Shown in pieces: positions 15,823 through 46,916 of a stretch of 63,911 nt of DNA. Positions within the stretch are counted from its first letter, which is position 1; each line of letters begins with the position of its first letter. Location of the stretch: contig JBFMGO010000022.1 in the NCBI GenBank assembly GCA_040752695.1, forward strand, positions 1 through 63,911, given 5' to 3'. Position numbers and translations under genes: made by a program. Source of the DNA: a bacterium (GTDB lineage: Bacteria > SZUA-182 > DTGQ01). The notes under the pieces were generated by a model, which was given only the letters and a program-made list of their open reading frames with translations, had not been told where the DNA came from and made no database searches.

Positions 15823-18800
15823 ATGCGAACATTTAGAATGATCGTTCTGACTCCGGCTGGGAAGCCAGAACCTTCCCTGGCCATAGCGGCAAGCCGGGCC
15901 GGGGAACTGGGAGTCCTGAATCTTGAGTATTCCCGCAGCCTGCCGACTGCTCGAGAGAGTATTGAGCACCTGACCAGACATAGCAGATGTGATTTTGGGA
16001 TCAAGCTGGATGGCCAATCCGGTGATTTCCTCTTTGAGATGAGCTCTTATCTCGCGGAATTCATGCCTGAGCGGCTTCATTATATCATTTTAACTTCCGG
16101 GCCGATTCAAAACTTGCGCAAATTTATGCGCACGTTTCATGACCTGGGTCTTTTCATTTTTTACGAAAGCATTTGTCTTCGTCAGGCACAGATTGGAAAG
16201 GAACTCGGTGCTGATGGAATTATCGTCAAGGGCCATGAGGCGGGAGGCAAAGTCGGTGAAGAAACATCCTTTGTTCTGCTTCAGAAGGTACTCTCTTCTC
16301 TGAGCCTGCCCGTCTTTGTTCATGGAGGAGTCGGTCTGCATACCGCAGTGAGCTGCTATGCTGCCGGGGCGGAGGGAATCGTTCTGGATTCGCAGCTTTT
16401 GCTGACCAGAGAATCCCCGCTTCCCAAAGAGGTAAAATTTCGTCTGGCCTCGATGGATGGCAGTGAAGTGACCTGCCTGGGAGAACGGCTGGGTGCACCA
16501 TACCGTGTTTATTCAAGGCCCAATCTGCCGATCCTGAAAGAGCTTCAGGCTCAGGAGGAGCGGCTTTGCCGAAACGACTCTTTGCATTCTCCCTCGACGG
16601 TCGCAAACGTATATGACCGGCTGTCAACCTGGAGGGAACTGATCTGCCAGCAGGTAGGCTGGCAATCCCTCGAAAAGGATCTTTTCATATTGGGGCAGGA
16701 TGTATCGTTTGCTTCCTCGCTGGCTCGAAGGTTTGGAACGGTGGGAGGGATTTTGCAGGGAATCCGCCAGTCGATAGACTCTCACCTTCGGGCTGTAATG
16801 CATTCATCATCATCACTCACTGACGAATCAACAGCCGCTGCCGGAATGGCTGGCGATAAGGAAGAAGTTCAGGCTGAGGATGCGGTAAGCCGGGATGCGG
16901 ATGCCGAATGCGGCATGGAAGATACCGGCAGTCTTGAATGGGAAACCACAAACCGGGCAATCAATTTTCCCTTCCGTGAGGGGAGCAAGCTGGCCAGGAG
17001 CCACGGCACCCGGTATCCGATTGTCCAGGGACCGATGGCCAGGATTTCCGATGTCCCTGAATTTGCCACTCAGGTAGCTGCAAAAGGTGCCCTGCCCTTT
17101 ATCGAACTGGCCATGATGCGGGGTAAGAATGCCAAGAGCCTTTTGGAGCGTTGTGAAAAGGCCCTGTCCGGTCTTCCCTGGGGCGTAGGGATACTGGGAT
17201 TCATCCCTTTGGATCTCTTCAAGGAGCAGGGAGAAGCCATTATGGCTCACCGGCCAAAGTTCGTTCTCATTGCCGGGGGGAAAGCGGAGCAGGTTAAATC
17301 CTTTGAACGGCAGGGGATTCCCACCTATATTCATTGTCCTTCTCCGGGAATGCTCAAATTATTTCTCCGTGAAGGATTGAAACGCTTTATTTTTGAAGGA
17401 TTGGAGTGCGGCGGCCACCTGGGGCCGCGAAGCAGTTTTACCTTATGGGAGAGCAGCCTTGAGGTTCTTCTGGATTTTTTGGGGAACCGGCAGCAGGGCC
17501 AGGGGGCAGGGACCGGTCCGGCTTTGCAGTCTTCGTCCGCTGATGCATCAGCGTATCAGGTACTGTTCGCGGGAGGAATCCATGATGCGCGATCTTCCCT
17601 CATGGTATCGGTGCTGGCCGCTCCCCTGGCTGAACTAGGGGTTCAGGTGGGTGTGCAGATCGGCTCTGCCTACCTGTTCACGGAAGAAGCCGTATCTTCA
17701 GGAGCCATCGTCAGGGAATTCCAGCAACAGGCTCTGGCATCGAGGGGCACGATCAGACTGGAAACCGGTCACGGTTATGTGACCCGCTGTTTATCCACTC
17801 CCTTTACGCAGCTCTTTATTCAGGAGCGGCAAAAGATGCTTTCCGAGGGCCGCTCGGTTGAAGAGATCCGTAATGCGTTGGAGGAGTTGAACCTTGGACG
17901 TCTTCGGATCGCGGCTAAAGGTATTGACCGGAGCCCGGGGGGCGGTGCTGATCCGTCCTATGTTCCGGTAAGCGGGGAGGATCAAAAAGAGAGGGGCCTG
18001 TATATGATCGGCCAGATTGCAGCGCTCAGGGACCAGATCAATACGATCCAAGAGCTGCACCAGAGCATATGCAGGGGAGGGGAGGAGGAGCTCAGGAAAC
18101 TGGTTCACGGTACATGGTCCAGGGTGTATGGTTCGCCAAAAGACACGGGCTCTTGGCAGCCAGTCACCGCCTCTGAGTATCCGGCATTGGATGGTCAGCA
18201 TTCGAATTTCCGGAATCCGCCCGTAGCCATTATCGGCATGGCCTGTATTTTACCCAAGGCTCCCGATGTGAGAACGTATTGGTCGAATATTCTGGACAGG
18301 GTCAACGCCATTGAGGAAATCCCTCCTGACCGCTGGGATTGGCGGCTCTACTACCATACGGACCGCAAGGCAAAGGACAAAATTTATTCCCGGTGGGGCG
18401 GGTTTATCGATGATGTCCCGTTCGATCCCATGGATTATGGCATGCCGCCCAATACCCTGCGCTCCATCGAGCCTTTACATCTCTTGACCCTCGAAGTGGT
18501 CCGGGAGGCGATGAAAGACGCCGGATATTTAAACCGCTCCTTTAACCGGGACCGCACCTCGGTCATCCTTGGAGCTGGAGGAGGTGTGGCCGACCTTGGG
18601 ATCACCTACAGCATCCGCTCCTTTCTCCCACTCATGGAGCATATGAGCGCCTTGCGTGCTCCCGATGGCCCCGCTCACGATAAAGCGATGTTCGATGCGG
18701 AAAAGCTCATCGCCCGGCTGAACTCCACTTTCTCGAATCCGCCTCCCGTGGGGGAGAATGCCAAAGGTGCCGGACAGCGAGCTGTCAGCGATCACGGAAG

Positions 18801-21800
18801 GCCCTTTTTCCCCGAGTGGACCGAGGACTCCTTCCCCGGCATTCTCATGAATGTGGCTGCCGGACGAGTGGCCAACCGGTTCGATCTGGGAGGGGCGAAC
18901 TTCACCGTGGATGCTGCCTGTGCTTCATCCATGGCCGCAGTCTATCTGGCGATGAAAGAACTGCAAACCTATAGCAGTGATATGGTTGTGGTAGGCGGAA
19001 GCGATACCATGCAAAATCCCTTCACCTATCTGTGCTTTTCCAAAACACAGGCCCTGTCTCCTACGGGACAGTCCCGTCCACTGGATGAAAGTGCTGACGG
19101 CATCGTGTTGGGGGAGGGTGTAGCCATAGTGGTCCTGAAAAGGCTTGAGGATGCCGAACGTGACGGGGACAGGATCTATGCGGTGATCAAAGCTGTCGGA
19201 TCGTCCAGTGACGGCCGTGATAAGTGCCTTACCGCGCCCCGGCCCGAGGGACAGATTCAGGCACTCAGGCGGGCCTATGCTCAGGCTGGCGTCAGCCCCG
19301 CGACCATCGGCCTGATCGAGGCTCATGGGACAGGGACCGTAGCAGGTGACCGGGCAGAAGTCCAGGCGCTCAGCAAGGTATTTAAAGATGCCAGCGCCAG
19401 GCGGCAGTCTTGCGCGATCGGGTCGGTCAAATCCATGATCGGCCATACCAAGTGTACGGCAGGGGTGGCGGGCTTGATCAAAGTGGCTCTGGCCCTTAAG
19501 ACCAAGGTCCTGCCACCGACTCTGGGAGTCAATCAACCCAACCGGAAAGCCAATTTCGAGCAAAGCCCCTTTTACGTAAATACCGAAGCCAGACCCTGGC
19601 TCAACGCTGCGGAATCGAAAGAGGCGGGTTCCCGTGCCTGCCCGCATCCGCGACGGGCGGGAGTGAGCGCTTTCGGATTTGGGGGAACCAATTTCCACGC
19701 CGTATTGGAAGAATATATCGAGGATCTTCCCCGGCAGGTGCCGGAGATGCTGTATCAGAAATGGCCCGGAGAGCTCTTTCTGTGGGAGGCGAAATCGAAA
19801 AACGATCTTCTGGACCTGCTCAAGACGATGCGAAAGACCCTCGATGCGGGAGCAGGCACAAGCGCTGACTTAGCCAAAGGGCACGGACGGCCGCTGACCG
19901 CCGCCCCTTTTGCTCCATCAACGCTTGCAGACCTGGCATCGAGCCAATGGGAGCAGATGAAGTCGGTGATGAAATCCTCTTCGATGGTCACTGAGGGGTC
20001 CATAGCCGCCAAGGAGACCCCCGCTGCCTCTCAGCGGCCATCGAATGGATTCCGTCTGGCCGTGGTAGCAACTTCCATTGAGGATCTTCAAAAGAAAATA
20101 GAAAAGAGTATCGAGGTTCTGTCCTCTGCAGAAAACGACAGCCAGAAACCGGCATCCGGAAACCGGATCTATGATTACTATGACCCAAGGGGAATTTATC
20201 TGGCCGGACCCACAAGGCGGGTGGCGGGAAAAATCGCTTTTCTCTTCCCTGGTCAGGGTGCACAGTACCCTGGCATGGCCAAAGACCTTGTACTGCATTT
20301 TCCCGAGGCACGATCCTGTTTCGAGCGGGTAGACCAGATTTATTCCCGGATCTATTCGATGAACGCTAACGCCTGCAAAAGCGGGAACCCGGCGGCGGAT
20401 CCGGAAAAGCTCAGCGATTACATTTTTCCTTTGCCAGCCTTTAGTGAAGAGGACACAGCAAGCCAGAAAAAAAACCTGACCAGGACCAGTATTGCACAAC
20501 CAGCTATCGGTGCCGTCAGTATGGCTCTTTGCCACGTGCTACGCGGGCTGGAAGTCTATCCGGATATGACGGCTGGCCACAGTTACGGCGAGTATGTGGC
20601 CCTGTGGGCTGCCGGAGCGCTCAGCGAAGAATCGCTGCTGCGGGTGTCAGAGGCCAGGGGGCGGATCATCGAAGAGGCTCAAGGAGTCGGGAGTGCGGAT
20701 ACGGGAACCATGGCTGCCTTAAGGGCGAGTGAAGAGGCGATTCCGGAATTGATTGCCGGCATCAAGGATGTCTGGATCGCCAATTATAACTCTCCGCAGC
20801 AAATAGTCATTTCGGGCACAAAACCGGCTGTGCAAAAGGTAATCGACCGTTGCGCGGGCCGGGGGATAGAGGCACGGATGCTGGATGTATCCTGCGCCTT
20901 TCACTCTCCTCTCGTCACTCCTGCCAGGGAAAAGTTTGCGGAGTTTTTGAGCACGCTGCCATTGAATGAGCCAGAAATAGCAGTTTACTCAAATACTACG
21001 GCTTATCCTCACTCCACTGATCCTGCGCGGATAAAAGACCAGTTAGTCAGGCATCTGGTTAGCTCCGTTCGTTTCAGACATGAAATTGAGGCCATGTATG
21101 AGTCCGGAGCACGGATTTTCGTCGAGGTCGGGCCGCGAAGTATCCTGAGCCGACTGGTTACCCAGATTTTTCCCGCAGCTTGTGACAGCGAGAAGGACAG
21201 CGAAAAGAGCAGTGCAAAAGGTGAGGTGCAAGGTTCTGAAAAGAGCGCAGGGCGCAGGCCACAGGATGCGCACTCTGTAATAGGCGCCCTCCCATCACTG
21301 ACCGCTGACGGCCAGGACCGGCCTATCCTGAGTATTGCTTTGGACCAGCCGGGACGACCAGGATTATTACAACTGCAACATTGCCTGGGGCAATTATTTG
21401 TCCAGGGGGCATCCATGAATCTGGACCGGCTCCATTCAGGCCGCAACGCCAATGACATGGATTGGATACGTCCGGGACACCGCTCATCCGGCAGAACGTT
21501 CACTCCAACTACGTGGTTCATCCGGGGAGACCGTATCCATCCGTTACAGCAAAAAGTTGTCCGCAATTCCCGTCCCCTGGGCCGTCACTTCCAGGAAACC
21601 GGAAATGGAGAAGCCAGAAGGGAAATGCCTCCGAAAGCCGCTGGCAGCGAAAAGAGCAGTACGGGATACGAGGTACGGCAGGCGGAACAAATCGCACGAC
21701 ACACGGCGCAGGACTTACAATCTTCAATAACCGCAAAAGGGAAAGGCCACTTTTACGCCTCCAGAGAGGAAATGCCGAAAGAGGCTGTCGAAAACCGGAT

Positions 21801-24800
21801 GCGGAATGTGGAATGCGCAATGCAGGATGCTGAAAACCGCAGCCAGCATCCGGCTCCCGGAAACCAGGCGGCTCAGGAAAGGGATAAGAACATGGCACTG
21901 CATGAAGAGGCCACCCAGGACAAGAGCAGGGGAAATCAAAAGGCTGTATTCGACCGCACCGATAATGCCGGCGCAGAAAAGAGGCAGGGACAGACCCAGG
22001 GGCCTTTCCATTTACACGGCCAGCATCCGCGATCCGATGCCGGTGCTTTTGGCGGGGAATCTTTGACCCGGTCCTTCCCTCAAGGAGACTTTCCCGCTAT
22101 CGCTGATGGCTCTCGCATTGCTGATGGCGAGCCTTCGCACCAATTGGGGGGGGAAAGCCAAAAGGGGTATTTCATGCCGGCAGCAGAGGATCAGGTTATG
22201 ATTCAATTCCAGGAAATCATGACCCGGTTCCTGGACACACAAAAAGAAATAATGCTGCGGTACATACAAAACAGGGGTCAGGATTCAGCTACAGGGACAG
22301 GCTGCTATCCGTATCCTTCTTCAGGGACAGCGCTCACCGAGCCGTGGGCAGGCAGGGATGCCCATGGGTCGAGAGTCGAGAGAGCGAACGATAAAACCCT
22401 CATGCCGGATACCGGATACCTGCCACTGGATCAAGGCAGCCAGGAGAGCTTTTCCGGCGGCCAGGCGTTTGATGCCAGTTCCCCGGCACCGGAGGCCGGG
22501 TACCCGACTGCGGCTTTCGACCACCAAGCACCCGGACACAGCCACCTGACGCCGCATGTCGATGAGCAGCCTCCAAAAAGCAGTTACCAGGCACCGGATG
22601 CAAGCTTTAAGGCGCCAAAGACCGATGAGCAGGAATTCGAAACCAGCAGCATCCAGACAGACGGTGCCCAGGAATCTGAAAAGCTGAATGAGGAAAAGAT
22701 CCGTGATGTTTTGCTGAATATTGTCAGCGAACGGACAGGATACCCTCACGAGATGCTGGACCTGAACCTGAACATGGAAGCCGACCTTGGTATCGACTCG
22801 ATCAAACGGGTGGAGATCCTGGGGAGTTTCCAGCGGGAGTTCAGTGCTTCCATGGGACAGAGTATGGAACAGGATATGGAAAGCCTGAGTGGAGCGAAAA
22901 CTCTGCAGGAGATCATTGACTGGGTGGTCAGGAAAACCCCGCAAACTGATGCCGATATTTCACACTCCTTATCTGGCCCTGACAACAGCCCTGGAGAATC
23001 CACTGTGCCCGAAGACCCTGTGCCGGATGCAGGATACGCAGAAAGTTCAAAAGAGACTTCACCAGATGCCGGGGGAATCCAAAGGTATATCCTGGAGAAA
23101 GTGGAATTCCCCTGCATCTGCCAGGGGCAGGCTGTTCTTGACAAAAGCAGGGTGGTGGTAATCACCGAAGATCAGGAAAGAAAACTGGCCCGTTGTCTGG
23201 CAGATGCGCTCAAGGGACAGGGATATGAAGTGGCCCTGATCCGGATGGCGAATGCCAAAGAGGAGCACGAGCCTGAACACCTGAGTCATGCGTCCGAGGC
23301 CCTGGGGAATGTTCCGGTATATGGAGCAGATCTTGGTTCCTGTGAGAGTGTGGAGGCTGTCCTGAATATCATCCGGCAAAAGCAGGGCCGGATCGGAGGT
23401 CTGATTCATCTCTATCCCTTTGCCTCGTCCGGTCAGGCTTTATCGCAGATGGACCTTTCCCAATGGAGACAGCGGCTGCGACTGGAAGTAAAAAGCCTTT
23501 TCTACTGCGCCAGGGCATTGGAGCCTGATTTACGAATGGAAACAAGCGGCCAGCATCCGGAAACCATGCTCATGGCAGTTACGTCGATGGGAGGATTGTT
23601 CGGCAGCGTTCCCACGTATAGCGATCGCACCTTTTCACCCTCGCAGGGAGGCTGTGCCGGACTGATCAAGAGCCTGAAAGCGGAGTGGCCGGAAGTAAAC
23701 CTGAGGGCGGTGGATCTTGATCCTCGGGAGGATGCGGACCGTCTGGTTCATTACCTCCTGAAGGAAATGCACTGCCGGGGGGAGGGCGCCTCCTATGTTG
23801 AAGCCGGATACTGGCGGGGGAGCCGGTTCACCTTGAGACCGAAAGCCGCACCGCTCAAGCCGCACGGCAGCGCATCTTTATCAAAGAACCGGGAAGGGGA
23901 GGGACAGCCGGGTTTTGCGATCGAGTCCTCCTGGGTCATACTCGTCACCGGAGGGGCCAGAGGGATTACCGCCGATGTAACCAGGGAACTGGCACGACGC
24001 TACCGCCCCGTCTTGATCCTGGCCGGAAGCTCTCCTTTGCCCAAGGAAGAAGAGGACTTTTTGACGACCGGTTCCCTTCAGGAGGTGAAATCACGCGTTA
24101 TTCAAAGGATGAAGCAAGAGGGGGAGGAGGTCACTCCCGCCCGTGTAGAGGCCAGATACCGAAACTTGTGCAAGGCGGCGGAGATCAGGGCCAGTATCGG
24201 AGCCATCAAGAAGCAGGGCGCACGGGTGCACTACTATCAGGTAGATGTGCGGGACGACAAGGCACTGGCCGGATTCATCGATCATCTTTATGAAACGTTC
24301 GGCAGGATCGATGGAGTAATCCATGGAGCGGGAATCATAGAAGATAAGCTTATTAAGGATAAGACAGTCGAGTCCTTCGACCGGGTATTTGACACCAAAG
24401 TCGACAGTGCCTTTGTCCTGAGCCGCAAGCTTCGCTTCGACTCCCTGAAATTCCTGGTCTTCTTCTCCTCTGTGGCTGCCCGTTTCGGCAACCGGGGACA
24501 GGCAGATTACGCTGCCGCCAACGAGGTCATGAATAAATTAGCCATTTATCTCGACGATGGCCTGGCCGTGCTGCCGCCAGGGCAGAATTACTCTTCTCAA
24601 GGGGATAGGAGTGCGAATTTCCCGCGGATCGTTTCCATCAACTGGGGTCCCTGGGAAAACTCAAATATGGTTCCTCCGGCCTTGCAGGCGGAATTCCTTA
24701 AGCATGGCGTGCAGCTCATCTCCCGGTCTTTTGGTCCCATGCTGCTGGATCAGGAACTGCACTATGGCCGTGAGGGTGAAATTATCCTCGGCGGAGGAGG

Positions 24801-25944: not shown

Positions 25945-26309
25945 ATTTTTTTTTTGCCGGGTGGAGAGAGGAAGGGGTAAGAATGCGGCAGGCAGAAAAA
26001 GGTGTGGAGGGACGCTTTACGTGACTGCCATCGAGAATGAGAATTCGGGAGTCAGATGGGAATATGAGGTCGGCATCTTCAAGATAAAGTGGGTAAAAAG
26101 AGAGAGGATTAAGGATGCTTCCTCTTGTTCCTTTTTTGGAGGAAGCAAGCAGCCGAGAAGACTGCAAGTCAGGAGGAAAACCGCCTTCGATGATCGACGA
26201 CGGGTTGTGGATTTCTGTTTTACTCCGATTCCTGCTGGATTCTGGTTCCTGCTTTACCGTGAATCCTGCTTTATTCTGAATCCTGTTCCTTAAAAACAGA
26301 GCGGATGAG

Positions 26310-32300: not shown

Positions 32301-33353
32301 TTTATCGGCCAGATCACAGAGCTTCAGGTCAAAGCGACCGGCTATGGAGCAGAATACATTCAAGGGACAAAAGCGGACCAAGGGACAAAAGCCTTGTCAA
32401 TTTCCCTGATTCAACAATTCTGGCGGGGTGAAGCCGATATGTTCAGGGATGTCATGGCGTATATGATACTCAGTCGCCGGGAAAGAGAGATTTACCATCG
32501 CCTTCCCTCGGTGAAGGAGCAGGGAAACTGGCTGCTTGAGCGAATGGTGGTCAAAGATGTCATTCGAAATTTTTTGGAAAAACATGGGCAGGGAGTCAAC
32601 CATCACGCCCGGCAGGAGGCAATAGCCTATGCCCGGCAGGGAGATGCGGAGTATTCGCCGGCGGGTATTGAAGTCTCTGCGAGTGACCATGGGAAGGATT
32701 TTTATCCGGCGGATATCAGCATCGGAGAAAATGACCGGGGACAGCCGGCAGGGGAGGGGAAATGGGTACATGAGGTATGTGAAGTTCCTTCTTTCTCGTT
32801 TGCGCATACGGACAATGCAGCCGTAGCAGTGGCAGCCGGAGCAGGACTGGCTGTTGGGGTCAGCATCGGATCACTGAATGACGGGTGCCGGATGCCGGAT
32901 GCCGGACGCTCCGCACCGGTGACGGAGACGGATGGTGCTCTGGTTGCAGGAAGCCGCCTGAAAGCCGCCGGCAGCAAGACCAAAAATCCGTGCACTTTTC
33001 TCACCCCTGAAGAGGTCGCACTTTTGTCCGGTCTTTCCGATAGATCCAGGCTAGCAGAAATAGCCATGAGAATTCGATGTGCCAAGGAGGCAGTCATAAG
33101 AGCCCTTGGCCGCAGGGGTGAAGGCAGGGATATTATTGTTCAAGAGTTTGATCTGCACACAGGAGGCATGAAAGTATCTCTTGAGGGGGGGCACGAATTT
33201 CATTCCGTGAACGCTCCTCGGGCAGCAGGCATGGAAGACGGAAAGGTCGAGGAGACCGGGAAAAGGCCCATCCGGGTACATACCGCTCTTGAGCGGGAAT
33301 ACATCATTGCCATAGCCATTATCGAAAAACAAAGGGTAAAGGAGCCAGGATAA
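26310..33353 (+). CDS. PfaA-like type I PKS 2: KS-AT-ACP-DH-PPTase-like (no KR seen)
   Basis: KS DAACASS (Cys 27201), HGVGT, KSMIGH; AT GHSAG (Ser 29010), GYHT; ACP LGIDSIKRVE (Ser 30996); DH HRFG...LPVVP and LDAAGQ; C-terminal Sfp-like fold (SFAHT...VGVSIG...CAKEA). Start may be 26313 or 26319. Confidence 0.9.
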   Translation: MMIMSIASACGNSENNEIDSARNKADRRGFPALHPRGAKDPACLSRLTTVRGDVAIIGMACIFPGAPDLRAYWRNILSKTDAVIDVPPGRWDSGLYFSEDANDINKVYCKRGGYLDECMNFDPLRHGVMPLGVEGGEPDQFLVLQVVQEALEDAGYGDNGLLSLNAGSHHPASGRQNPESGRQEAADSARHPGKSQKRQQAPGNQKTEFILGRGNYLGVGASNLIQRSIVTEQTLQILKSLHPEYTKEDLAGIRRELLAGLPRFSADSAPAFIPNLTTGRVANRLDFMGPNFTVDAACASSLIATEIGVNDLLTGKCDLAITGGVHIFANVPFLLIFCAFQAMSLSSRIRPFDQDADGTLPGEGVGVVVLKRLADAERDGNRIYAVIKGIGTASDGRAVSVVAPRLEGEELALRRAYEIAGVSPRTVRLIEAHGVGTPVGDVIEVQAMRRVFGERGRSGPRCALGTVKSMIGHAMPAAGIAGLIKASLSLYHKVLPPTINCEKVNPKLEIEKTPFYVNTETRPWIHGEKDFPRRAGVNAFGFGGINAHAVLEEYTGSRRAKGRSQKPGVRSQKPQAGLQPPGSAPQRQMEPDSFLTEPGRNQPMESASLESTPSQWETEVCIFGGESRPELIRQVQGVQRFLKLSPHALKDQKTLLRDVAFSLSQALEQGQKAHDLHGQNKDNRSHDGHAPFTGAKGSELSLKTASGESPARPFRLAVVAATIEDLQRKLDYAQRRLSDPACQQIRDVQGIYFFATPFSKEGKIAFLFPGEGSQYVNMLADLCIYFPEVRACFDRTDRILGEQSQVDACSHPSQSHPQEDSGKPLPDDLIYEESGNPEADGDLPSFNIFPPPSFSSLDRVAAADRLFRMDRATEAVLTGNLAMHTLLTSLGIRPDQMAGHSAGEWSAMVFSGIIDADEFLHNTGRLNRIYRKLSLDPDIPKATLIAVGAGLSQITPILGQLHGITSNTAAVTPCSGIGREGSLHHGGAGGFQPGNDEHPKVNRSMQNQTLLYVADDNCPHQVVIAGEEQAAEEAVRLLRAAGIQFEKLPFNRGYHTPLFAPICQHLREYFSSFSLSSPQVEVYSCTTMTPYPKETEEILELAVKTWVMPVAFRQTILNMYDSGTRIFIEVGPRGNLTAFVEDILRGKKHLAIASNVLRRSGITQLNHLVGLLSAQGVGLNLGYLYRYRSPRLITWAEDAGSEDMADEHDCLTPEGDTGIRRKSSANEGKIRKQVSKSTPKGVELKLPLGLYSLTVKERKAKSSANQMESADGKKVHADGKRMQDTPERQMLDAGHRMPDTESGQPVAGTRHPENPIQEPGFGRPHPETRPQYPKTVASDGFRAADVPRSFPESKNLCPAPSGFVMQEYLKTMGRFLDTQKEMMNAYLQQKGKLWQAGIPARQAPSFSDQMKDTGYPVPDPRNHLPEPQNQHSAASSLHPPEAGIQLPAAAGREHPFASEQPSYDSIQHQETSHQLPAASIPDQPPGTQAPAPGLWNTELSITDPESSTPKTDEQPQYGQASANAMTEGELTRIMLELISEKTGYPIEMIDVNLDMESDLGIDSIKRVEIIGSFRSQYAQLEEDDIEAISSLKTIRQIIDFLGKKMETAAQPAEGAAADAQESMAGQQSSNPKPPGAITQAPESSSLQSKSGFQTPAAEKRRDGVLPFTGTVTDLKPGKSVTLLRQVDLSEDLFLDDHRFGQKISELDDSLGALPVVPMTVSIEIMAEAASLLFPGQKLIRAERIGASQWICLEKEEPVTLSIKAEVTAPGEALVQIGIIRSGLQEKPRQQVVSGRMIFGQAYPSPPSLAEFILQDERVPSHTAEQVYSEHRMFHGPRFQGIASMDSVGRNGLKAHLKTSPASFLPKMEDASGEIASYGTLGSGFFRSWPVPRLLTDPFLLDAAGQLVGYWPVEYLDSGFVIFPIALEALCIYGDTPPPLSCLRTRMRLREVTNTQVRADLDILNDDGQVWMQLIGWEDWRFYWSRQLYDFWRFPNRGFIGQITELQVKATGYGAEYIQGTKADQGTKALSISLIQQFWRGEADMFRDVMAYMILSRREREIYHRLPSVKEQGNWLLERMVVKDVIRNFLEKHGQGVNHHARQEAIAYARQGDAEYSPAGIEVSASDHGKDFYPADISIGENDRGQPAGEGKWVHEVCEVPSFSFAHTDNAAVAVAAGAGLAVGVSIGSLNDGCRMPDAGRSAPVTETDGALVAGSRLKAAGSKTKNPCTFLTPEEVALLSGLSDRSRLAEIAMRIRCAKEAVIRALGRRGEGRDIIVQEFDLHTGGMKVSLEGGHEFHSVNAPRAAGMEDGKVEETGKRPIRVHTALEREYIIAIAIIEKQRVKEPG

Positions 33354-33436
33354 AGGTTAAGGGAGAGATACTAAAAAATCAGATACTGGATAGTGGTCCT
33401 CGGGAAACCAGCTTTCAGCAAAATGAGGGGTTCATT

Positions 33437-33727
33437 ATGGAAGAAAAAAATCAGGAAAATATTTTTCGATCAGTGTCAGTAATCATTAGCAGTTTGAAAG
33501 ATGAATGGGAATATTCCGGAGAGATTACTCCCGAGACTTCACTTTTTACCGATCTGGATTTCGAATCGATCGATGCTGTGGTCCTCGGGTCAATGATTGA
33601 AGAACATTATAATCGTCCCTTTCCTTTTGCCGAATATCTGGCGAGCATAGGGGAGCAGGAAGTGCGGGACATAAAAGTCAAGGATCTGGTCAGTTTCATT
33701 TATCAGAATCTCTCCAATGGCAGCTAA
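33437..33727 (+). CDS. Stand-alone acyl carrier protein
   Basis: 96 aa, acidic, ITPETSLFTDLDFESIDAV (Ppant Ser in an ESI context), VKDLVSFI. Confidence 0.85.
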   Translation: MEEKNQENIFRSVSVIISSLKDEWEYSGEITPETSLFTDLDFESIDAVVLGSMIEEHYNRPFPFAEYLASIGEQEVRDIKVKDLVSFIYQNLSNGS

Positions 33728-33744
33728 AAGGAGAGTAAACCAAC

Positions 33745-33780
33745 TCAAACCCTCCCCCCAACCCGGACGGGAGGGTTTGA
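33745..33780. repeat. Perfect 12-bp inverted repeat (REP-like hairpin)
   Basis: TCAAACCCTCCC (33745-33756) / GGGAGGGTTTGA (33769-33780). Confidence 0.7.
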
Positions 33781-33821
33781 GCGAGAGAGGCCAAGGTGTA
33801 CATGTTGAGGAAATAAAGCGT

Positions 33822-33904
33822 ACTACGAAATACATGAAAGGCACGAAAAAGGCTTCTTCCAGTATCTATGCCGCTGATTTCGCGTATTTTGTGTATTTCG
33901 TGGT
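33822..33904. repeat. REP-like palindrome with 3 x 9-nt periodic arms
   Basis: ACTACGAAA TACATGAAA GGCACGAAA ... TTTCGCGTA TTTTGTGTA TTTCGTGGT. Confidence 0.75.
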
Positions 33905-33995
33905 TAACATTTAAAAGGGCTTTTCAAATATGCCCTGATACATCGGAATTCCCTCATAAAGGGGGAAGATATTTACGTGAAAACGCTCTATCTCT

Positions 33996-35879
33996 ATGGA
34001 GAGCATGAAGGAAACCAAAAGCATGAAGGAAAAAAAGAGCACGAAGGAAACGAAAAGCGCGAAGGGGAAGAAGAGCATGAAGGAAACGGAGAGTATGAAT
34101 GAGTGTGGGAAGAGGACATGTGAAGCTGGCAGAGAAACGCACAAAGAAGCGGGCGGAACAGGAGAGGTAAAAAGGGGGCTCGATAGACGAACGGTACTCA
34201 TTGGACTGGACGGGGCATCCTTTACCGTGCTTGATCATTTGATGGAAGAGGGGACGATGCCTTTTCTGAAAAGATTTCTGTCATTGGGGTGTCGTGGAGA
34301 GTTGACCTCAGTAGTGCCGCCCCTGACGCCACCAGCCTGGATTTCGCTGGTAACGGGGTGCGCGCCCGGGGCACACGGAGTGTTTAATTTTCTGCAATTC
34401 GAGTCGCCGAAGAGTCGCTACATCAAGTGGCTTTCCTTTCGGGACATCCGGCGGGAGACAATCTGGTCAATCGTGAACCGGCACGGTATGCGGGCCGGGA
34501 GCTTGAATTTCATAGGCATGAATCCCCCCCCGGCGATATCGGGATATATGATACCAGGTTTTGTGAGTTGGCGGTGGTTGAGGAAGAACAGTCATCCGGA
34601 GGATCTTTTTGACCGGTTGCGTTCCATTCCCGGCTTTGATGCCAGGGAGATGGCGCTCAACTTTCGGGAGGAGGAGAAGGCGGTCAAGGGATGTCAAAGG
34701 GAAGAGTATGAGGATTGGATCAGGCTGCACATCCGGCGGGAGCGGCAGTGGTTTGATGTGGTACGTCATCTGATGAAGACGGACCCCTGCCATCTGACAG
34801 CGGTGGTATTTGACGGCATGGACCGGATACAGCATGTATGCTGGCGTTTTCTGGATCCTGCCTACGCTCTCGGTACCCTCCAGCCCTGGGAAGAAAAGGT
34901 GAGGCAGCTATGCCTGGAATACTATCGTAATCTGGATGGATTCCTGGAGGAGATCGTCAGCATTGCGGGGTCTGAGGCAAGCATTTTCATGGCCTCCGAT
35001 CATGGATTCGGTCCGACCAGGGAAATAGTGTACATAAATCAATGGCTCCATGATCACGGTTACCTGGAGTGGAAGGGGAGTGTCAAACCGGCCGGCGGTA
35101 AATCGTCCGAGCGTCAGCCCGAACATTCCCCAAAGGACGGGAAACCAGCATCCAATCAGGCGAATAAAGGGAATGAAGACCTGGAGAGCCTTGGAGTAGA
35201 GTCTCCCTACCGGAGTCTTTTGCATCTGGATTGGAAAAAGACCAAGGCGTATGCTGCGACTGCCAGCAGCAACGGAATTATCATCCAGGTAGCGGGAAAG
35301 AGGGGAGAAGAAGGGATCAGACCCGAGGAGTATGAAACGTTTCGTGAAGAATTAATGCATAAGCTGTTGACAGATTGCCGCGATCCCAAGACGGGTGAGG
35401 CATTGATCACCAAAATCTGGACCAGGGAAGAGGCTTTTGCCGGTGATTATCTCGACTGTGCACCGGATCTGACACTGGTTTTGCGGGATAGCGGCTTTAT
35501 CTCCATTTATCCCTCGGATGTGTGGTGTCGCCCCCGGCAGCAGGTAATGGGGACGCATCGTCCGGAAGGTATTTTTGCCGCCGTGGGGCCGGGTATTCGC
35601 GGCGGAGGTCAGACTCTGTCACCCTTATCGATCATTCAGGTAGCGCCGGCCATGCTCTATACGCTGGGGATCCCGATCCCATCGGATATGGACGGAGCAA
35701 AGAGCGCAGACCTTGTTATGGCCCGGATGTTCGATCCTGAGTATCTCCGGAAACGTCCGGTGGAGAAGGGAGAACCGAGTCTTTTGCCGGAGCGCTATCA
35801 GGATCCCCCGCCTCAGACTGAGGATGCGGAGGGGCAGGAGCAGATTATGCTGAGACTGAAGAGCCTGGGATATGTTTAG
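33996..35879 (+). CDS. AlkP-superfamily phosphodiesterase/nucleotide pyrophosphatase
   Basis: LIGLDGA, SVVPPLTPPAWISLVTG...HG, DRIQH, SDHGFG, GTHRPEG, C-terminal RLKSLGY; repetitive N-terminal extension. Confidence 0.88.
   Translation: MESMKETKSMKEKKSTKETKSAKGKKSMKETESMNECGKRTCEAGRETHKEAGGTGEVKRGLDRRTVLIGLDGASFTVLDHLMEEGTMPFLKRFLSLGCRGELTSVVPPLTPPAWISLVTGCAPGAHGVFNFLQFESPKSRYIKWLSFRDIRRETIWSIVNRHGMRAGSLNFIGMNPPPAISGYMIPGFVSWRWLRKNSHPEDLFDRLRSIPGFDAREMALNFREEEKAVKGCQREEYEDWIRLHIRRERQWFDVVRHLMKTDPCHLTAVVFDGMDRIQHVCWRFLDPAYALGTLQPWEEKVRQLCLEYYRNLDGFLEEIVSIAGSEASIFMASDHGFGPTREIVYINQWLHDHGYLEWKGSVKPAGGKSSERQPEHSPKDGKPASNQANKGNEDLESLGVESPYRSLLHLDWKKTKAYAATASSNGIIIQVAGKRGEEGIRPEEYETFREELMHKLLTDCRDPKTGEALITKIWTREEAFAGDYLDCAPDLTLVLRDSGFISIYPSDVWCRPRQQVMGTHRPEGIFAAVGPGIRGGGQTLSPLSIIQVAPAMLYTLGIPIPSDMDGAKSADLVMARMFDPEYLRKRPVEKGEPSLLPERYQDPPPQTEDAEGQEQIMLRLKSLGYV
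34002..34103 (+). repeat. In-frame 18-nt tandem repeat (about 5.7 units) encoding S-M-K-E-T-K-like repeats
   Basis: AGCATGAAGGAAACCAAA / AGCATGAAGGAAAAAAAG / AGCACGAAGGAAACGAAA / AGCGCGAAGGGGAAGAAG / AGCATGAAGGAAACGGAG / AGTATGAATGAG. Confidence 0.85.
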
Positions 35880-36042
35880 CTGGATTTCGGATATTGAGTT
35901 TAAGGCTGGCAGATGGCTGTCTTTTAGCTCGATACCGGGAGTTAGGAGTGCCGGATACCGGATTTTGGATTCCGGTAACCGGATGTTGATCAATCGTCAT
36001 TCCCTCGAGAGCGGGAATCCGGAGTAAGAAAAAGGAGAAGGA

Positions 36043-36870
36043 ATGCCGAAAGTTTTCGTGGGACAATTAGCTATTCATTATCAGCAGCACGGAAGTGGTC
36101 CTGATGTTATTCTGGTTCATGGAATCACGGGGAATTTATCCCTTTGGTTCATGCGCATTTTGCCTGCTCTGGCTAAAAAGTACCGGGTCACCGCCTATGA
36201 TCTGCGGGGACACGGATACAGCGACCGGCCTTCGACCGGGTATACTTCGGACGATATGGTTAACGATATCGAGGGGCTTATCAACCACCTGAATATTGAA
36301 CGCGCCTTTGTGATCGGGCATAGTTTCGGGGGAGCCATCGCTCTTCACTTTGCGGCCCTTTATCCCCAGAAGGTGGCAGGATTGGTGATTCTGGACTCAG
36401 GCATTCCCTCCCTTTTGCATCTTCGGCGATTGGATGACTGGCAGGGCTGGGAGCTTTATAAAGATGATCTCGATCAGTTGGGCGTCCATACCGAGGAGGA
36501 ATTGCTGAATGTGGAAAATGCCGTGCGAAAAAGCTTTTATGTACCTATTCAGCACGGGCTTCGCATCGGAGGAAGCAGGAAATCGGACCGTCTTTCGCGA
36601 TTAATCGAAGAAACCACCGTCCTAAAGGAGTTCCGGTCGATCAAATTTCTGACGGAGGAAAAAATTTCCCATATCACCTGCCCGACACTTTGCATATACG
36701 GTGCATTTTCGCCCTATCGCGGCATTGGGGAACGACTGAGCAAAATTATGCCTGATTGTGAATTTCTATCGGTTTCTGACCATGGACATTTTTACCCGAT
36801 GCAATCACCCGATATCCTCCTGGAAATGCTGGATGCCTTCTTTCAAAAACAGGAGGCAGGAAAACAATAA
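36043..36870 (+). CDS. Alpha/beta hydrolase (possible thioesterase/release enzyme)
   Basis: LVHG, YDLRGHGYS, GHSFGG nucleophile elbow, C-terminal GHF; SD AAGGAG. Confidence 0.9.
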   Translation: MPKVFVGQLAIHYQQHGSGPDVILVHGITGNLSLWFMRILPALAKKYRVTAYDLRGHGYSDRPSTGYTSDDMVNDIEGLINHLNIERAFVIGHSFGGAIALHFAALYPQKVAGLVILDSGIPSLLHLRRLDDWQGWELYKDDLDQLGVHTEEELLNVENAVRKSFYVPIQHGLRIGGSRKSDRLSRLIEETTVLKEFRSIKFLTEEKISHITCPTLCIYGAFSPYRGIGERLSKIMPDCEFLSVSDHGHFYPMQSPDILLEMLDAFFQKQEAGKQ

Positions 36871-37464
36871 ATCAGGGAGTCGGGATAACTGAAAATCAAA
36901 ACCGGGTCGTCAACAATCTTAATGGAGATGCAGACCCTTTAGGGCCTATTCCCAAGTAGTTGGGATAATAAGGAGCGGAAGGTCCTTGCGAGGCATCATT
37001 ATTCACCATGAGGTATTACTTTATAATCACTTATCGTTAATCGTCACTCATTATCAGGAACCAGGAGGTGGTGAAGAGCAAAACTACGTTATCAGTCGTT
37101 CCCTCAAAAAAGCGGGAATCACCAGATATTGATTTTGCTGAAAAGCTGTTGCGGAGGATGGAGAGGGGACACAAGGGTACAGGTTCTTTTTTTCCTGTTC
37201 TTGGCAGCACAACCGGATCAAGGGACCGGTGTCATCTTACCGAAGTATTTTATATTTACTGAAGCATAAGCGTCAAGGGTTGTATACATGCAGGGTCTTT
37301 ACGGGTATTCAGACCTTTTTGCTGCATGTATACTGATTGAGGAGGCTAACAGGAGGCCAACAGGAGGCTGACAAAGATGGCGATCGAGTGAGCGTGCGGC
37401 TTCATTGCAGGCCATACAACACTTAGATGCGTCATCCGAAGATAGCCAAGGGGGGCTAAAGGCC

Positions 37465-39897
37465 ATGAGAAAAAAACATTCAGCGGTAATGTCATCGGGC
37501 AATAATGTCATTGAAAACGGATCATGGGGCATCGATGTGGGAATATCATCACCGGCTGTTTCCAGATCGGTTATTTCAGAAGTTTCAGATAGTTCGGGTG
37601 TTTTTGCGAAGGGAGTCAAAAGAGCGCTCATGGCGCTGGTCGTATTGACCTTCATTTTGGGATACATAAGCTGTCCTGTCGTTGCCACCGCGGCTGCCGG
37701 GCAGGAGAATCAACAGAGCATATGGAATGCGATCGGATTAGGTCATAGAGGATTCCAGCAAGTCAATAAGGATGGATTCGGATCTTTCCACAACAGCTAT
37801 GCATGGTCATCCGCATGGTACAAGGGTAGATTGTATGTCGGCACGAACAGGGACATGCTCTGCTATCTATCAGTGGTTTTTGGGACAGATCCAGCGAGCC
37901 TTCCGGATGTGAATTGTGACGACCCTGACTATTATGGCGAAATCTGGGCATTTGATCCCGAAATGATCAATGATCCTGAAAACGCCTGGGAGCGTGTTTA
38001 TCGGTCCCCTGAAGCAGCTTCGCCTTCGGGTTCCGGCTCGGTGCCGAGGGACCAGGGATACCGGGGTATGCAGGTGGTAGTGGAGCCCGATGGGACAGAG
38101 GCGCTCTATGTCGGGGGGTACATCAGCAGGGAAGTGGTGCCGGTGGATCTTCCGGCCAGGCTTTTACGATCTGTCGATGGCAAGACTTTCAAGGAAGTGA
38201 GAAGCTCTGATGGTTCGGTACTGGGAAATATCGACACCTTCGGATTACGTTCATTCACGCAGTATAAGGGAAAGCTGTACATGACAGCTAATATGAATCC
38301 TCCGCAAAGGCCGAAACTCCTCGAGGCGGATCTGGCCACACTCACTCCGAGCGGCACCAGTGCGTATACGATGAACATTCGCCAGGTGAATAACACTGCC
38401 GAAGTTCAGCCATTCGAGATTGAGGTATTTAACAACTATCTGTACATCGGGACAGTAGATGCCGATAACGGTTTTTCCGTGTTGAAGACGGACTGCACGG
38501 GGAACCCTCCCTACACCTTCAAGCCCGTAGTCACGCATGGGGCTTACCGCACGGACCGGGTCGGGAAGGACAGCTATAATTTAAACGAATATGTCATCAG
38601 CATGCGTGTATTTCAGAACCGGCTGTATATCGGAACCGGGTGCGGGCTTGGGGGGTTCGATTTTGTAAGTAAGGTAGGCCCTGCCGCAGCGGAGATGATA
38701 CGGATAAATCCTGACGATAGCTGGCAGCTTGTGTGCGGAAAAAAGCGCAACACGCCGGACGGGTTAAAGGTGCCGATCAGTCATCTGCCTGCCGGCATGG
38801 GGAATCCCTTTTCCGGGTATTTCTGGCGGATGGCGGTTCACCGTGATTGGCTCTATGTTTCGACCATGGACAGCAGCATCGCCCTGCGGAACCCCGACGT
38901 ATTGGCCAGCCTGGATCCGTCGAAGCTGCTGGCTTCAGATGACGACAGTGGCCACAATCTGATTAATATCGCTGACTTACTGCTGCTGCCCGGACTCATG
39001 GGAGACGGTATCAGCAATCTCCTTGGTGGATTCGATCTGTGGAAAACGCGCAACGGTGTGCAATGGTACCCGGTAACCACCACCGGCTTTGGTGACAAAT
39101 TCAATATCGGGGCCCGTATCATGGAATCCACACCATTAGGATTTTTTATCGGTACGGCCAATCCCTATTATGGAACACAGATATGGCTGGGAGACGATCA
39201 TTTCCCCCTGGCCCGGAATCTCCAGGCGGAACCTGATGAAAATGGCGCGAAGTTGCGCTGGACTGCACCCCAGGGAACAACAATCAGCCATGTTTACCGC
39301 AGACAGATCCTTGGAGGCATAAACGGCCTGTTCGATGGCCTGGGCCTGTTGAACGGAGAGGTGGGAACCGGCCAGTCATCGTTGAGCACTGACGGGTTCG
39401 GTCTTAAGGAGATCGCAGCAACGCAGGATCAATTTTATATCGACACCAATGCAAGGGCCGGTACCCTCTATCTTTACCAGGTGAGCTGTGAAGGAGAAGG
39501 CGGAGGACTTTCGGACCGATCGAACCTGGCTCTGTGCCGGATACCTTCGATGACCGAGGATGGAATATTCTGGAGCGGCAGCACGCGAATCCTGGAGCAA
39601 AGGCTGCGTCCGGACCGTCTGCGTGGGCAATGGACACAGTGGATAACGGTGATCAACCAGACAGATGAGACCATGTCATCACCACTGAACATAATCCTGG
39701 AAGGACTGGCCAATGGTCTTTCGGTGCTGAACATGACAGGCACAGCCGAGAATGGCAGCCCGTACCTGAGTATCCCGGTCGGATCGGGAGGTCTGCTGCC
39801 GAGAGAGAGGGTACAGGTCCAGCTTCGCTTCAGGGGTAAAAACTCATCCCGCATCAGTTATATACCCTTTGTGACCAATCCTCCTGTGGAGCCATAG
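37465..39897 (+). CDS. Secreted/anchored beta-propeller-like protein with FN3-like domain
   Basis: Hydrophobic segment KRALMALVVLTFILG...ATAAA; repeated (F/Y)-x-(G/N)-x-LY(V/I)GT blades; NLQAEP...LRW...YLYQV FN3-like stretch. Start uncertain (37405-37492). Confidence 0.7.
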   Translation: MRKKHSAVMSSGNNVIENGSWGIDVGISSPAVSRSVISEVSDSSGVFAKGVKRALMALVVLTFILGYISCPVVATAAAGQENQQSIWNAIGLGHRGFQQVNKDGFGSFHNSYAWSSAWYKGRLYVGTNRDMLCYLSVVFGTDPASLPDVNCDDPDYYGEIWAFDPEMINDPENAWERVYRSPEAASPSGSGSVPRDQGYRGMQVVVEPDGTEALYVGGYISREVVPVDLPARLLRSVDGKTFKEVRSSDGSVLGNIDTFGLRSFTQYKGKLYMTANMNPPQRPKLLEADLATLTPSGTSAYTMNIRQVNNTAEVQPFEIEVFNNYLYIGTVDADNGFSVLKTDCTGNPPYTFKPVVTHGAYRTDRVGKDSYNLNEYVISMRVFQNRLYIGTGCGLGGFDFVSKVGPAAAEMIRINPDDSWQLVCGKKRNTPDGLKVPISHLPAGMGNPFSGYFWRMAVHRDWLYVSTMDSSIALRNPDVLASLDPSKLLASDDDSGHNLINIADLLLLPGLMGDGISNLLGGFDLWKTRNGVQWYPVTTTGFGDKFNIGARIMESTPLGFFIGTANPYYGTQIWLGDDHFPLARNLQAEPDENGAKLRWTAPQGTTISHVYRRQILGGINGLFDGLGLLNGEVGTGQSSLSTDGFGLKEIAATQDQFYIDTNARAGTLYLYQVSCEGEGGGLSDRSNLALCRIPSMTEDGIFWSGSTRILEQRLRPDRLRGQWTQWITVINQTDETMSSPLNIILEGLANGLSVLNMTGTAENGSPYLSIPVGSGGLLPRERVQVQLRFRGKNSSRISYIPFVTNPPVEP

Positions 39898-40495
39898 AGG
39901 CTTTCGGAAAAGGCGTGATAAGAAATCCTTTCCGATGATCGCTAAAGGGATTCGATTAATCGTTAACGCCCTGAACGATCACCGGTAAGCCGCTTAGAGG
40001 CATGGACGCTTATGGGGCAATGACTGCCCAAGGACGATGATCTTTCATCATCCCCGGATGACGGGCCTTTAAGTCATCCCGACCCGACAGTACTTCATGC
40101 GGCATGCCGACGGCTTCGATGATTGCTTAAGGGTTACCGCTCTCTATATGTCTTGCATCTTAAGATTGCCAGGATATTTCTCAACGTATTCATAAGGAAT
40201 GTGCAGGCAGGGCGTTATTCTCTCCGGAAGAGGACACCAGAGTTTGGGGAGAATATGCCCTGTCTGTACAAACCAAAGCCAGCCTGAAACGAAATCCATT
40301 TCGACCTCTTTTTCCCTGTAGGTCTTTTTCTTCATAGTTCCGAATTATCTACAGCATATTAACTTACTTATTAAAAATTATAAATAAGTGTAAAGCCTAC
40401 TCTACACTGTATTCGATGATTGCTGACAGATGAATACCCCGTGCCTCAATAATCGAGTATGTTTAAAGCGGGCTACCCATAGGGAGGAATACTGT

Positions 40496-42901: not shown

Positions 42902-42903
42902 GT

Positions 42904-44220: not shown

Positions 44221-44271
44221 ACTGTTAAGCATGTAATTTTAGGGGGAAAACCCAAAGGCGAAGATCAAAAT

Positions 44272-46904: not shown

Positions 46905-46916
46905 CGGCTTTTCCTC

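Follow-up and report, generated by a model that had tools for sequence, protein, structure and literature searches.

A two-protein PfaA-like synthase linked to a discrete carrier protein, an NPP-type phosphodiesterase, a hydrolase and a beta-propeller protein: a candidate orphan 'secondary lipid' cluster

Clusters for 'secondary lipids' built by relatives of polyunsaturated fatty acid (PUFA) synthases have been catalogued since 2011, and almost all of them lack a known product. The closest described layouts are types M–P (e.g. Renibacterium salmoninarum and Frankia), which, according to the reports (PMC3098273, PMC13291983), consist of two large proteins: the first has an enoyl reductase (ER) fused before ketosynthase (KS), acyltransferase (AT), acyl carrier protein (ACP) and ketoreductase (KR) domains, and the second has KS, AT and dehydratase (DH) domains with a C-terminal phosphopantetheinyl transferase (PPTase) domain. 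The pfaDA and pfaBC-PPTase pair of Renibacterium is noted as uncharacterised (PMC13291983) and its arrangement is Shulse–Allen Type M (PMC3098273); Type P is the Azotobacter ars cluster, which makes the C22–26 acyl part of phenolic lipids (PMC3098273), and ArsD has been described as a PPTase (PMC4824345). Here we describe a locus with this two-protein layout on contig JBFMGO010000022.1 (C22) of a bacterial assembly (GCA_040752695.1; 6.05 Mb, 96.6% complete); the whole 63,911-nt stretch that was analysed is called the window. Its two polyketide synthase (PKS)-like genes, PKS1 and PKS2, are followed in order by genes for a 96-aa ACP, a phosphodiesterase of the nucleotide pyrophosphatase/phosphodiesterase (NPP) type, an alpha/beta hydrolase and an exported beta-propeller protein, all on the + strand. 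With a probability of roughly 60%, we read this as an orphan 'secondary lipid' cluster in which one iterative reducing synthase would make a chain, the ACP, hydrolase and phosphodiesterase would release it, and the product would be an envelope lipid. Genes, domains, catalytic motifs and conserved linkage are observed; the chemistry built on them is inferred.

Judged by its domains, the synthase pair matches types M–P as a set, and no single letter type is assigned to it; the PPTase domain of the second protein is degenerate in the window. The only characterised member of types M–P that we know of is the ArsA/ArsD pair of Azotobacter vinelandii, of which Miyanaga et al. in 2008 are said to have found that the two proteins jointly make saturated C22–C26 acids, kept on the ACP. 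In the ars cluster, two type III PKS genes located between the two fatty acid synthase (FAS) genes take the chain. Like the window, ars has two type I FAS-like proteins, of which one carries a PPTase; unlike ars, the window showed no chalcone-synthase-type (type III PKS) family when its open reading frames (ORFs) of ≥150 aa were scanned, and ars is not reported with a module of ACP, phosphodiesterase, hydrolase and propeller. Canonical PfaABCDE systems have in common with the window the KS/AT lineage, the ACP motif, P/Q/S-rich linkers, an ER of the FabK/nitronate monooxygenase (NMO) type and the iterative logic, whereas the window is without tandem ACPs, a KS–chain-length factor (CLF) and a FabA-type DH, and has its ER and PPTase fused. 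An earlier reading of the letters alone (hereafter the original prediction) had already noted that the canonical PUFA features are absent, and the Pfam calls agree: one ACP per protein, one KS each with its active Cys, and no separate PfaD. The heterocyst glycolipid synthase (hgl) is likewise a PfaA-like iterative synthase of a very long chain, and short-chain dehydrogenases/reductases (SDRs) and glycosyltransferases occur in related loci of Acidobacteriota and Chloroflexota (L063, L081), but the window has neither a reductase-release domain nor a glycosyltransferase, and we know of no hgl cluster with an NPP-type enzyme. As far as the full-text literature shows, the synthase pair is of a known but uncharacterised kind, and the ACP–NPP–hydrolase–propeller module was not found described there, the figures and supplements of PMC3098273 and PMC13291983 not being covered. 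Nor did the literature searched give a defined product for this cluster type, just as the original prediction had it.

The cluster belongs to a run of eight genes on the + strand (15823–41233) with intergenic gaps of 83–594 bp. All genes named in the original prediction are in place on this strand, as confirmed by Pfam, ORFs and fold models. The Pfam domain calls agree with it, with the ER of PKS1 refined to a tandem pair. PKS1 and its domains are:

15823–25944, +: PKS1, 3373 aa from ATG (Pfam, run on the full-length protein and in chunks)
15823–16812, +: ER-like domain 1 of PKS1, an NMO/FabK-like TIM barrel, ~aa 1–330 (PF03060, E 3.1e-14)
17005–18102, +: ER-like domain 2 of PKS1, NMO/FabK-like, ~aa 395–760 (PF03060, E 8.2e-11; FabK, E 1.2e-18)
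18220–19542, +: KS of PKS1 (PF00109, PF02801; motifs DAACAS with the Cys, HGTGT and GH)
20239–21171, +: AT of PKS1 (PF00698, E 1.4e-44; motifs GHSYGE and AFHS)
22708–22923, +: ACP of PKS1 (PF00550, E 1.1e-8; Ser2326 in LGIDSIKRVEI)
23185–24558, +: SDR-like structural half and catalytic KR of PKS1 (adh_short_C2; PF08659 KR, E 5.1e-36; TGGARGIT, YAAAN)
24997–25734, +: PKS-type DH of PKS1 (PF21089, PF14765; motif HRLDGKPVLP)

PKS1 had been described as ER-KS-AT-ACP-KR-DH. These domains were recovered by Pfam, except that two NMO/FabK-like domains take the place of the single ER, the full order being ER-like 1, ER-like 2, KS, AT, a P/Q/S-rich linker of ~490 aa with no Pfam match, ACP, SDR-like half plus KR, and PKS-type DH. 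The first ER-like domain also matches the FabK model TIGR03151 (E 8e-18), far under its cut-off, and the second carries the motif VQGPMARISD. Among the matches listed, the double-ER N-terminus covers 94–99% of the query region in most of 120 PKS1 homologues. Against the PfaA model TIGR02813, PKS1 scores 1152.4 bits, above the cut-off of 1010.1 and in line with the assignment to a PfaA-like 'secondary lipid' type synthase made earlier, and PKS2 scores 666.7 bits, under it. The motif LGIDSIKRVEI is identical in the two proteins, each of which has a single ACP, as both the motif search and Pfam confirmed. At E ≤ 0.05, Pfam found no second ACP, CLF, FabA-type DH, thioesterase or reductase-release domain in PKS1 or PKS2; chunks of their linkers matched no family at this threshold, and each protein gave one PP-binding match. 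Sequence searches of the PDB with either protein returned generic modular PKS matches.

PKS2 comprises:

26310–33353, +: PKS2, ~2345 aa (by Pfam: KS, AT, linker, ACP, PKS-type DH and a degenerate PPTase-like domain)
26463–27815, +: KS of PKS2 (PF00109, PF02801; DAACAS, HGVGT, GH)
28608–29765, +: AT of PKS2 (PF00698, E 2.9e-23, in two stretches; GHSAGE; GYHT replaces HAFH)
30912–31109, +: ACP of PKS2 (PF00550, E 1.1e-8; LGIDSIKRVEI)
31338–32234, +: DH of PKS2 (PF14765, E 7.8e-13; invariant His, DAAGQ)
32403–33335, +: PPTase-like domain of PKS2 (Pfam ACPS, E 0.0019; 18.7 bits, under the cut-off of 25)

The earlier description of this protein as KS-AT-ACP-DH with a PPTase-like end and no KR matches the Pfam calls, which at E ≤ 0.05 include neither a KR nor an ER. 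Its KS keeps the Cys-His-His triad intact and is therefore not a CLF. In an alignment of 12 C-terminal (DH–PPTase) regions of PKS2-type proteins (A1), the DH residues H85, D289 and Q293 are invariant in all 12 rows. The first half of the A1 profile matched the DH domains of PksJ, CurF and CurK in the PDB, and the second half AcpS (E 2.6e-8), Sfp (E 3.5e-4), human AASDHPPT and the PPT domain of fungal FAS; PF01648 is precomputed in most PKS2 relatives. By these profile matches, the predicted PPTase fold of the C-terminus holds. Activity is a different matter: motif P2 reads GVSIGS against the G-x-D-x-E of active enzymes, while the K-E pair of motif P3 (CAKEAV) is kept. The domain is probably inactive here, because the metal-binding Asp and Glu of P2 are lost, and the PPTase-like end of the original prediction is thus upheld for its fold and not for its activity. 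The P2 Asp is missing in the six closest proteins (P0001–P0006) and present in 83 of 120 family members. Motif P1b′ (hShxH), defined for types M–T in the text of PMC3098273, reads FSFAH in the window and VSIAH or VSISH in relatives. Two stand-alone PPTase genes lie elsewhere in the same genome, one on contig C83 and one, of the Sfp type, on C17; given the degenerate end of PKS2, priming would have to come from stand-alone genes, presumably one of these two. PKS2 is ~350–530 aa longer than full-length orthologues in the family, and its P/Q/S-rich linkers hold short tandem repeats (26818–26858, 27978–28023 and 30183–30297).

Together, PKS1 and PKS2 supply KS (both active), AT, ACP and PKS-type DH domains in duplicate, a single KR and a FabK-like ER, which amounts to a full fatty acid synthase plus another condensing module. 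This domain content points to a fully reducing type I synthase from the PUFA-synthase lineage that works iteratively as one unit and in which PKS2 would rely on the KR and ER of its partner; having neither of its own, PKS2 is likelier to work in one complex with PKS1, as is the case for PfaA/PfaC and, reportedly, ArsA/ArsD. Isomerising dehydratases place the cis double bonds in PUFAs. As the pair lacks both a FabA-type dehydratase/isomerase and a chain-length-factor domain, its product would be expected to be a long acyl chain assembled from malonyl units and saturated for the most part. Once finished, the chain may move to the discrete ACP, from which the hydrolase and the phosphodiesterase would release or process it. 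These downstream genes, and one further neighbour, are:

33437–33727, +: discrete ACP, 96-aa ORF (Ser44 in DLDFESID; NCBIfam ACP models, E 5e-7, under their cut-offs)
33996–35879, +: NPP-type phosphodiesterase of the alkaline phosphatase superfamily (PF01663, E 1.2e-35; conserved core from ~34170)
34000–34099, no strand: 18-nt tandem repeat of 5.4 copies (Tandem Repeats Finder), encoding a K/E-rich N-terminal extension of the phosphodiesterase ORF
36043–36870, +: alpha/beta hydrolase (PF00561, E 3.7e-32; weak Thioesterase match, E 4.9e-6; GHSFGG nucleophile elbow)
37405–39897, +: exported 7-bladed beta-propeller protein, extended at its C-terminus (830-aa ORF; fold model)
40430–41233, +: DUF1080/3-keto-disaccharide-hydrolase-like exported protein (PF06439, E 1.8e-8; signal-like N-terminus)

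The gene order is conserved both in close relatives and across phyla, so that the arrangement is not due to chance. We compared five other genomes of the same family and 35 more distant relatives (41 genomes with the source genome). The DH–PPTase part of PKS2 has strong matches in all five other family genomes; outside the family, the search gave no orthologue, and just two of the 35 genomes had weak, DH-level matches (E 4.6e-7 and 1.9e-5). By tblastn on contigs, the order PKS1–PKS2–ACP–phosphodiesterase–hydrolase–propeller is complete in three family genomes (G001, G002 and G004), and the same order is seen in G005 and G003 as far as their contigs of 9.1 and 6.1 kb reach. Identities to the window within the family are 57–64% for the PKS1 orthologues upstream of PKS2, 42–54% for PKS2, 73–88% for the ACP, 68–76% for the phosphodiesterase, 67–78% for the hydrolase and 46–60% for the propeller. 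The propeller gene occurs in four of the five other family genomes and is missing from all 35 genomes outside the family, and phosphodiesterase orthologues (≥68% identical) are confined to the family among the 41 genomes. The G+C content of the PKS region (54–57.5%, against 40–52% in the flanks) and the patchy distribution are compatible with acquisition by transfer.

Far beyond the family, at least 460 PKS2-type proteins of 1289–4104 aa (DH–PPTase part, E ≤ 0.001; a lower bound, as the 8000 best candidates were scored) and 2996 PKS1-type proteins (double-ER N-terminus, E ≤ 0.001) were detected, and on contigs taken from one genome per species, 323 of 344 pattern matches encode a relative. The supposition that similar architectures exist in other genomes is borne out by these numbers. 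PKS1-type proteins include an orthologue in Solibacter usitatus Ellin6076 and copies in metagenome-assembled genomes (MAGs) of Candidatus Brocadia; in two of these anammox MAGs (P0179, P0229), the double-ER N-terminus is 46–49% identical over the ER region. Neighbouring genes were counted, using tblastn with the window proteins, in the best 80 of the 323 loci, which are kin to one another and not independent samples. They belong to Planctomycetota/Phycisphaerae, Poribacteria, Acidobacteriota, Nitrospinota, Nitrospiria, Entotheonellaceae, Chloroflexota, Thermodesulfobacteriota, Actinomycetota and Cyanobacteria, and the PKS2 type as a whole spans at least eight phyla.

The discrete ACP is present in 53 of the 80 loci. 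Where at least 2.5 kb of downstream sequence was available (68 loci), an ACP is encoded in 46, a phosphodiesterase in 45 and both, directly after PKS2, in 43, and the window and these 43 loci differ from types M–P in this addition, which most of them extend by the hydrolase and the propeller. Since 43 of the 48 loci with either gene have both, no partner is linked more closely to the phosphodiesterase than the discrete ACP; in several loci, among them L029, L034 and L050, the two ORFs touch or overlap. With at least 9 kb downstream (49 loci), the phosphodiesterase was found in 36, the hydrolase in 27 (25 of them alongside the phosphodiesterase) and the propeller in 21 of the 36 loci with a phosphodiesterase, compared to none of the 13 without. 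Actinobacterial loci with the same PKS pair were also recovered (L057, L070, L097, L100), none of the recovered ones having the phosphodiesterase, and those of Pseudonocardiales, Mycobacteriales and Egibacteraceae (L056–L058, L060, L062, L064, L070–L074, L076, L078, L079) have neither ACP nor phosphodiesterase. A large subgroup of the catalogued clusters, found in Planctomycetota, Acidobacteriota, Cyanobacteria, Chloroflexota, Nitrospinota, Nitrospirota, Poribacteria and others, hence carries a fixed accessory set of carrier protein, NPP-type phosphodiesterase, hydrolase and propeller that we did not find discussed in the literature searched.

Around this core, loci of other phyla carry tailoring genes: B12-dependent radical-SAM enzymes with DUF4070, SDRs, an NAD-dependent reductase/epimerase, TauD-type dioxygenases, lipases resembling platelet-activating factor acetylhydrolase, two or three GT1 glycosyltransferases (L063, L081), sulfotransferases (six cyanobacterial loci, represented by L099, and L081) and a stand-alone PPTase (L067). 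This range of genes is consistent with a long-chain lipid that different lineages modify, at the head or along the chain, in their own ways. Two fusions were seen among these loci, one of the alpha/beta hydrolase to a B12-radical-SAM–DUF4070 enzyme in a Phycisphaera MAG (L069:13679–16639) and one of the propeller core to an NAD-dependent epimerase/reductase domain in an Entotheonellaceae MAG (L050:14640–17324). The problem is testable, as cyanobacteria in culture carry the cluster (Fischerella sp. PCC 9431, Fischerella muscicola PCC 7414 and Westiellopsis prolifica) and Solibacter usitatus Ellin6076 has the PKS1 orthologue.

The ACP named in the title of the original prediction is a genuine separate gene, and its Ser44, within the helix-II motif D-x-x-x-S-h-D, is invariant in 31 of 31 aligned rows. 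In the phosphodiesterase, D14, T53, D215, D218, H222, D277, H278 and H463 are invariant in all 29 orthologues aligned; seven of them (D14, T53, D215, H222, D277, H278 and H463) we take, by motif position, to be the NPP bimetal site and the Thr nucleophile. Its structure model (pLDDT 89.4) retrieved Xanthomonas NPP as the best Foldseek match (2gsn; E 2.8e-16, TM 0.66 by target), followed by ENPP1–7 and PhnA, at sequence identities of 13–16% to the best fold matches. A PDB sequence search matched only the N-terminal 90 residues of PhnA, and the protein atlas label is just 'alkaline phosphatase family protein'. No signal peptide was seen in the sequence. Relatives lack the tandem repeat, their homologues align from ~residue 60 of the query only, and the true start may lie downstream of the repeat. 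A predicted complex of the phosphodiesterase with the discrete ACP scored 0.12 and 0.20 (mark 0.32), values that count neither for nor against binding. Elsewhere in the same order or class, three genomes have arrays of 3–5 PF01663-type phosphodiesterase paralogues on one strand within ~10–13 kb (G008:C180, G014:C56 and G016:C51), unlinked to any PKS match.

What might such an enzyme cut? The original prediction let the alkaline phosphatase-like enzyme and the hydrolase add or release a polar head. Addition of a polar head finds no counterpart in the cluster, which holds no kinase, CDP-alcohol transferase or other gene for installing a phosphate head. Within the conserved core, the sole phosphodiester at hand is the serine–phosphopantetheine link of its carriers, and we tentatively propose, at less than even odds, that the enzyme cuts this link, either to recycle a blocked carrier or to eject acyl-phosphopantetheine. 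In Mycobacterium tuberculosis, the PPTase PptT and the phosphopantetheine hydrolase PptH are encoded side by side, PptH being a metallophosphoesterase and not of the NPP or alkaline phosphatase fold; the order PPTase domain, ACP, phosphodiesterase recalls this pair, which served as the model for our proposal. If such an action on the carrier arm is true, it would be a new way to release or proof-read carrier-bound products; if it is false, the cluster still points to a widespread envelope lipid. A bolder version, in which ACP, NPP, hydrolase and propeller form an undescribed off-loading module whose Ser-O-P cut ejects acyl-4′-phosphopantetheine or passes the chain on, we regard as rather improbable. 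We know of no PKS or FAS for which ejection of acyl-4′-phosphopantetheine is an established release chemistry, and if this version were true, there would be a new class of envelope lipid in at least eight phyla, cultured Fischerella included.

Of the rival explanations, a substrate other than the carrier survives best, and we consider it a serious possibility, although it too falls well short of an even chance, with the remaining probability going to some other role. The phosphodiesterase could hydrolyse or transfer phospho-head groups on lipids, in the manner of ENPP6, ENPP7 and autotaxin, or could be a nucleotide or coenzyme A (CoA) pyrophosphatase that removes 3′,5′-ADP or cleaves acyl-CoA. 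Its fold matches include these three lipid enzymes as well as the nucleotide-specific NPP1 and NPP3. Sulfotransferases and PPTases both release 3′,5′-ADP; the former are encoded in the six cyanobacterial loci and L081, and a PPTase domain is part of PKS2. However, the conserved core has no kinase, CDP-alcohol or phospho-transferase that could form a lipid phosphodiester, the enzyme is kept at 68–76% identity in a family with a degenerate PPTase domain and no sulfotransferase in the cluster, and its tightest partner is the discrete ACP (43 of 48 loci).

Downstream of the phosphodiesterase, the hydrolase is closest to enol-lactonase and C–C hydrolase models such as PcaD (96 bits, far under the cut-off of 255.85). 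The beta-propeller partner named in the original prediction is 7-bladed in the structure model, although its sequence has no Pfam or NCBIfam match and its PDB sequence search was empty. The model has a pLDDT of 73.8 overall and mostly >85 in the core, and VIA-align superimposed it on virginiamycin B lyase with Z 27.5 and an rmsd of 2.7 over 291 residues. Other propellers (Bacteroides sensor domains, YncE, WD40, Kelch) are tied within ~2 Z units; the matches being this generic, no function can be read from the fold. Its family comprises 1869 representative clusters at E ≤ 1e-30. The likely start is the ATG at 37465, and a hydrophobic signal or anchor spans ~aa 75–97; most non-cyanobacterial copies, the window copy included, have a signal-like N-terminus. 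The DUF1080 protein has copies of 57–65% identity that adjoin the propeller gene in G001 and G002 and not in G004, and is a cluster neighbour at genus level only. The exported propeller and the DUF1080 protein suggest that the product ends in the envelope, where the propeller, and in this genus also the DUF1080 protein, might bind or process the lipid.

Several observations weigh against the reading of the locus as a single reducing synthase with carrier-linked release and an envelope product. Phosphodiesterase paralogues of 26–38% identity are common in the class and do not adjoin any PKS. We know of no NPP-type enzyme that cleaves holo-ACP, and the established ACP and phosphopantetheine hydrolases AcpH and PptH belong to other superfamilies. 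The propeller copies of Cyanobacteria, Nitrospinota and Entotheonellaceae have no signal peptide, so an envelope location is not general. Family scans of the ORFs found no reductase, glycosyltransferase or sulfotransferase gene in the window cluster, and the head-group chemistry of other phyla therefore need not apply here. As to chain length and saturation, no member bearing ACP and phosphodiesterase has a known product, and the analogy with Ars depends in part on the domain content attributed to ArsA and ArsD. Finally, PKS2 has an intact KS, AT and ACP of its own, and by these motifs a separate, sequential role is possible.

Such a sequential scheme, which follows the original prediction, would have PKS1 alone make a saturated chain, to which PKS2 adds one or a few unreduced units (beta-keto, or enoyl by way of its DH) or which it condenses with a second chain, leaving a reactive end for the hydrolase to decarboxylate, lactonise or cleave. 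Besides the intact KS triad and the lack of KR and ER in PKS2, the AT motifs differ between the proteins (GYHT in PKS2, AFHS in PKS1), and the enol-lactonase and C–C hydrolase models nearest to the hydrolase would suit this kind of release, with the reservation that the PcaD score is far under its cut-off. Nevertheless, PfaC has no KR either and works in one complex with PfaA, and ArsA and ArsD together reportedly make plain saturated acids. Sequence alone separates neither arrangement from the other; all considered, we judge the sequential scheme unlikely.

The last two readings, a polyene or enediyne-type synthase and a canonical omega-3 PUFA synthase, are disfavoured. In the former, PKS2 would be kin to the enediyne synthase PKSE and make a conjugated polyene. 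PKSE has the architecture KS-AT-ACP-KR-DH-PPTase, which the order KS-AT-ACP-…-DH-PPTase and the size of PKS2 relatives (1600–1860 aa) recall. Yet no KR or SDR match lies between the PKS2 ACP (ending at ~aa 1600) and the DH (starting at ~aa 1675), family scans found no hot-dog thioesterase or enediyne cassette genes in the window, a fully reducing, ER-bearing partner is encoded directly upstream, and the best 60 PDB sequence matches contain no structure of a PKSE, observations which together make this reading very improbable. Production of EPA or DHA by a canonical omega-3 PUFA synthase is hardly credible because of the domain content (a single ACP in each protein, no KS-CLF, no FabA-type DH/isomerase and a fused ER), even though PKS1 exceeds the PfaA NCBIfam cut-off and LGIDSIKRVEI had been labelled 'PfaA-type' in the original prediction.

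Some further features of the window and the genome are of note. A 110-aa ORF between PKS1 and PKS2 (25961–26293) is taken as spurious, as it has no Pfam or NCBIfam match and no counterpart in the 80 loci. A promoter scan of the window gave 8 sites against 8.8 expected by chance, and a terminator scan gave 15 against 7.9, none of them unambiguously at the end of a gene. Directly downstream, the cluster is followed by three tandem B12-binding radical-SAM genes (41570–45594). They were not counted as members, being missing from the PKS contigs of all five family genomes, and the radical-SAM gene embedded in the cluster of Planctomycetota has its best match in this genome on contig C31 and not among these three. 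B12-radical-SAM paralogues number 16–25 candidates per family genome at first look and 2–6 at E ≤ 1e-20. More giant PKS reading frames (1991, 4714 and 4862 aa) occur in the same genome on contigs C69 and C100.

On the − strand, the region 45798–57051 encodes a phosphatidylserine decarboxylase, a peptidase-C45/AAT-like protein, two radical-SAM proteins (one with SPASM), a GH3-family amido synthetase, another B12-radical-SAM protein and three ORFs without a family; this group may be a peptide- or lipid-modifying cluster. At the other end of the window, the release factor 2 gene (2404–3504) has the programmed +1 frameshift classically seen in this gene: the short frame upstream stops at CTT TGA C (2481), and the PCRF/RF-1 frame carries on from this site.

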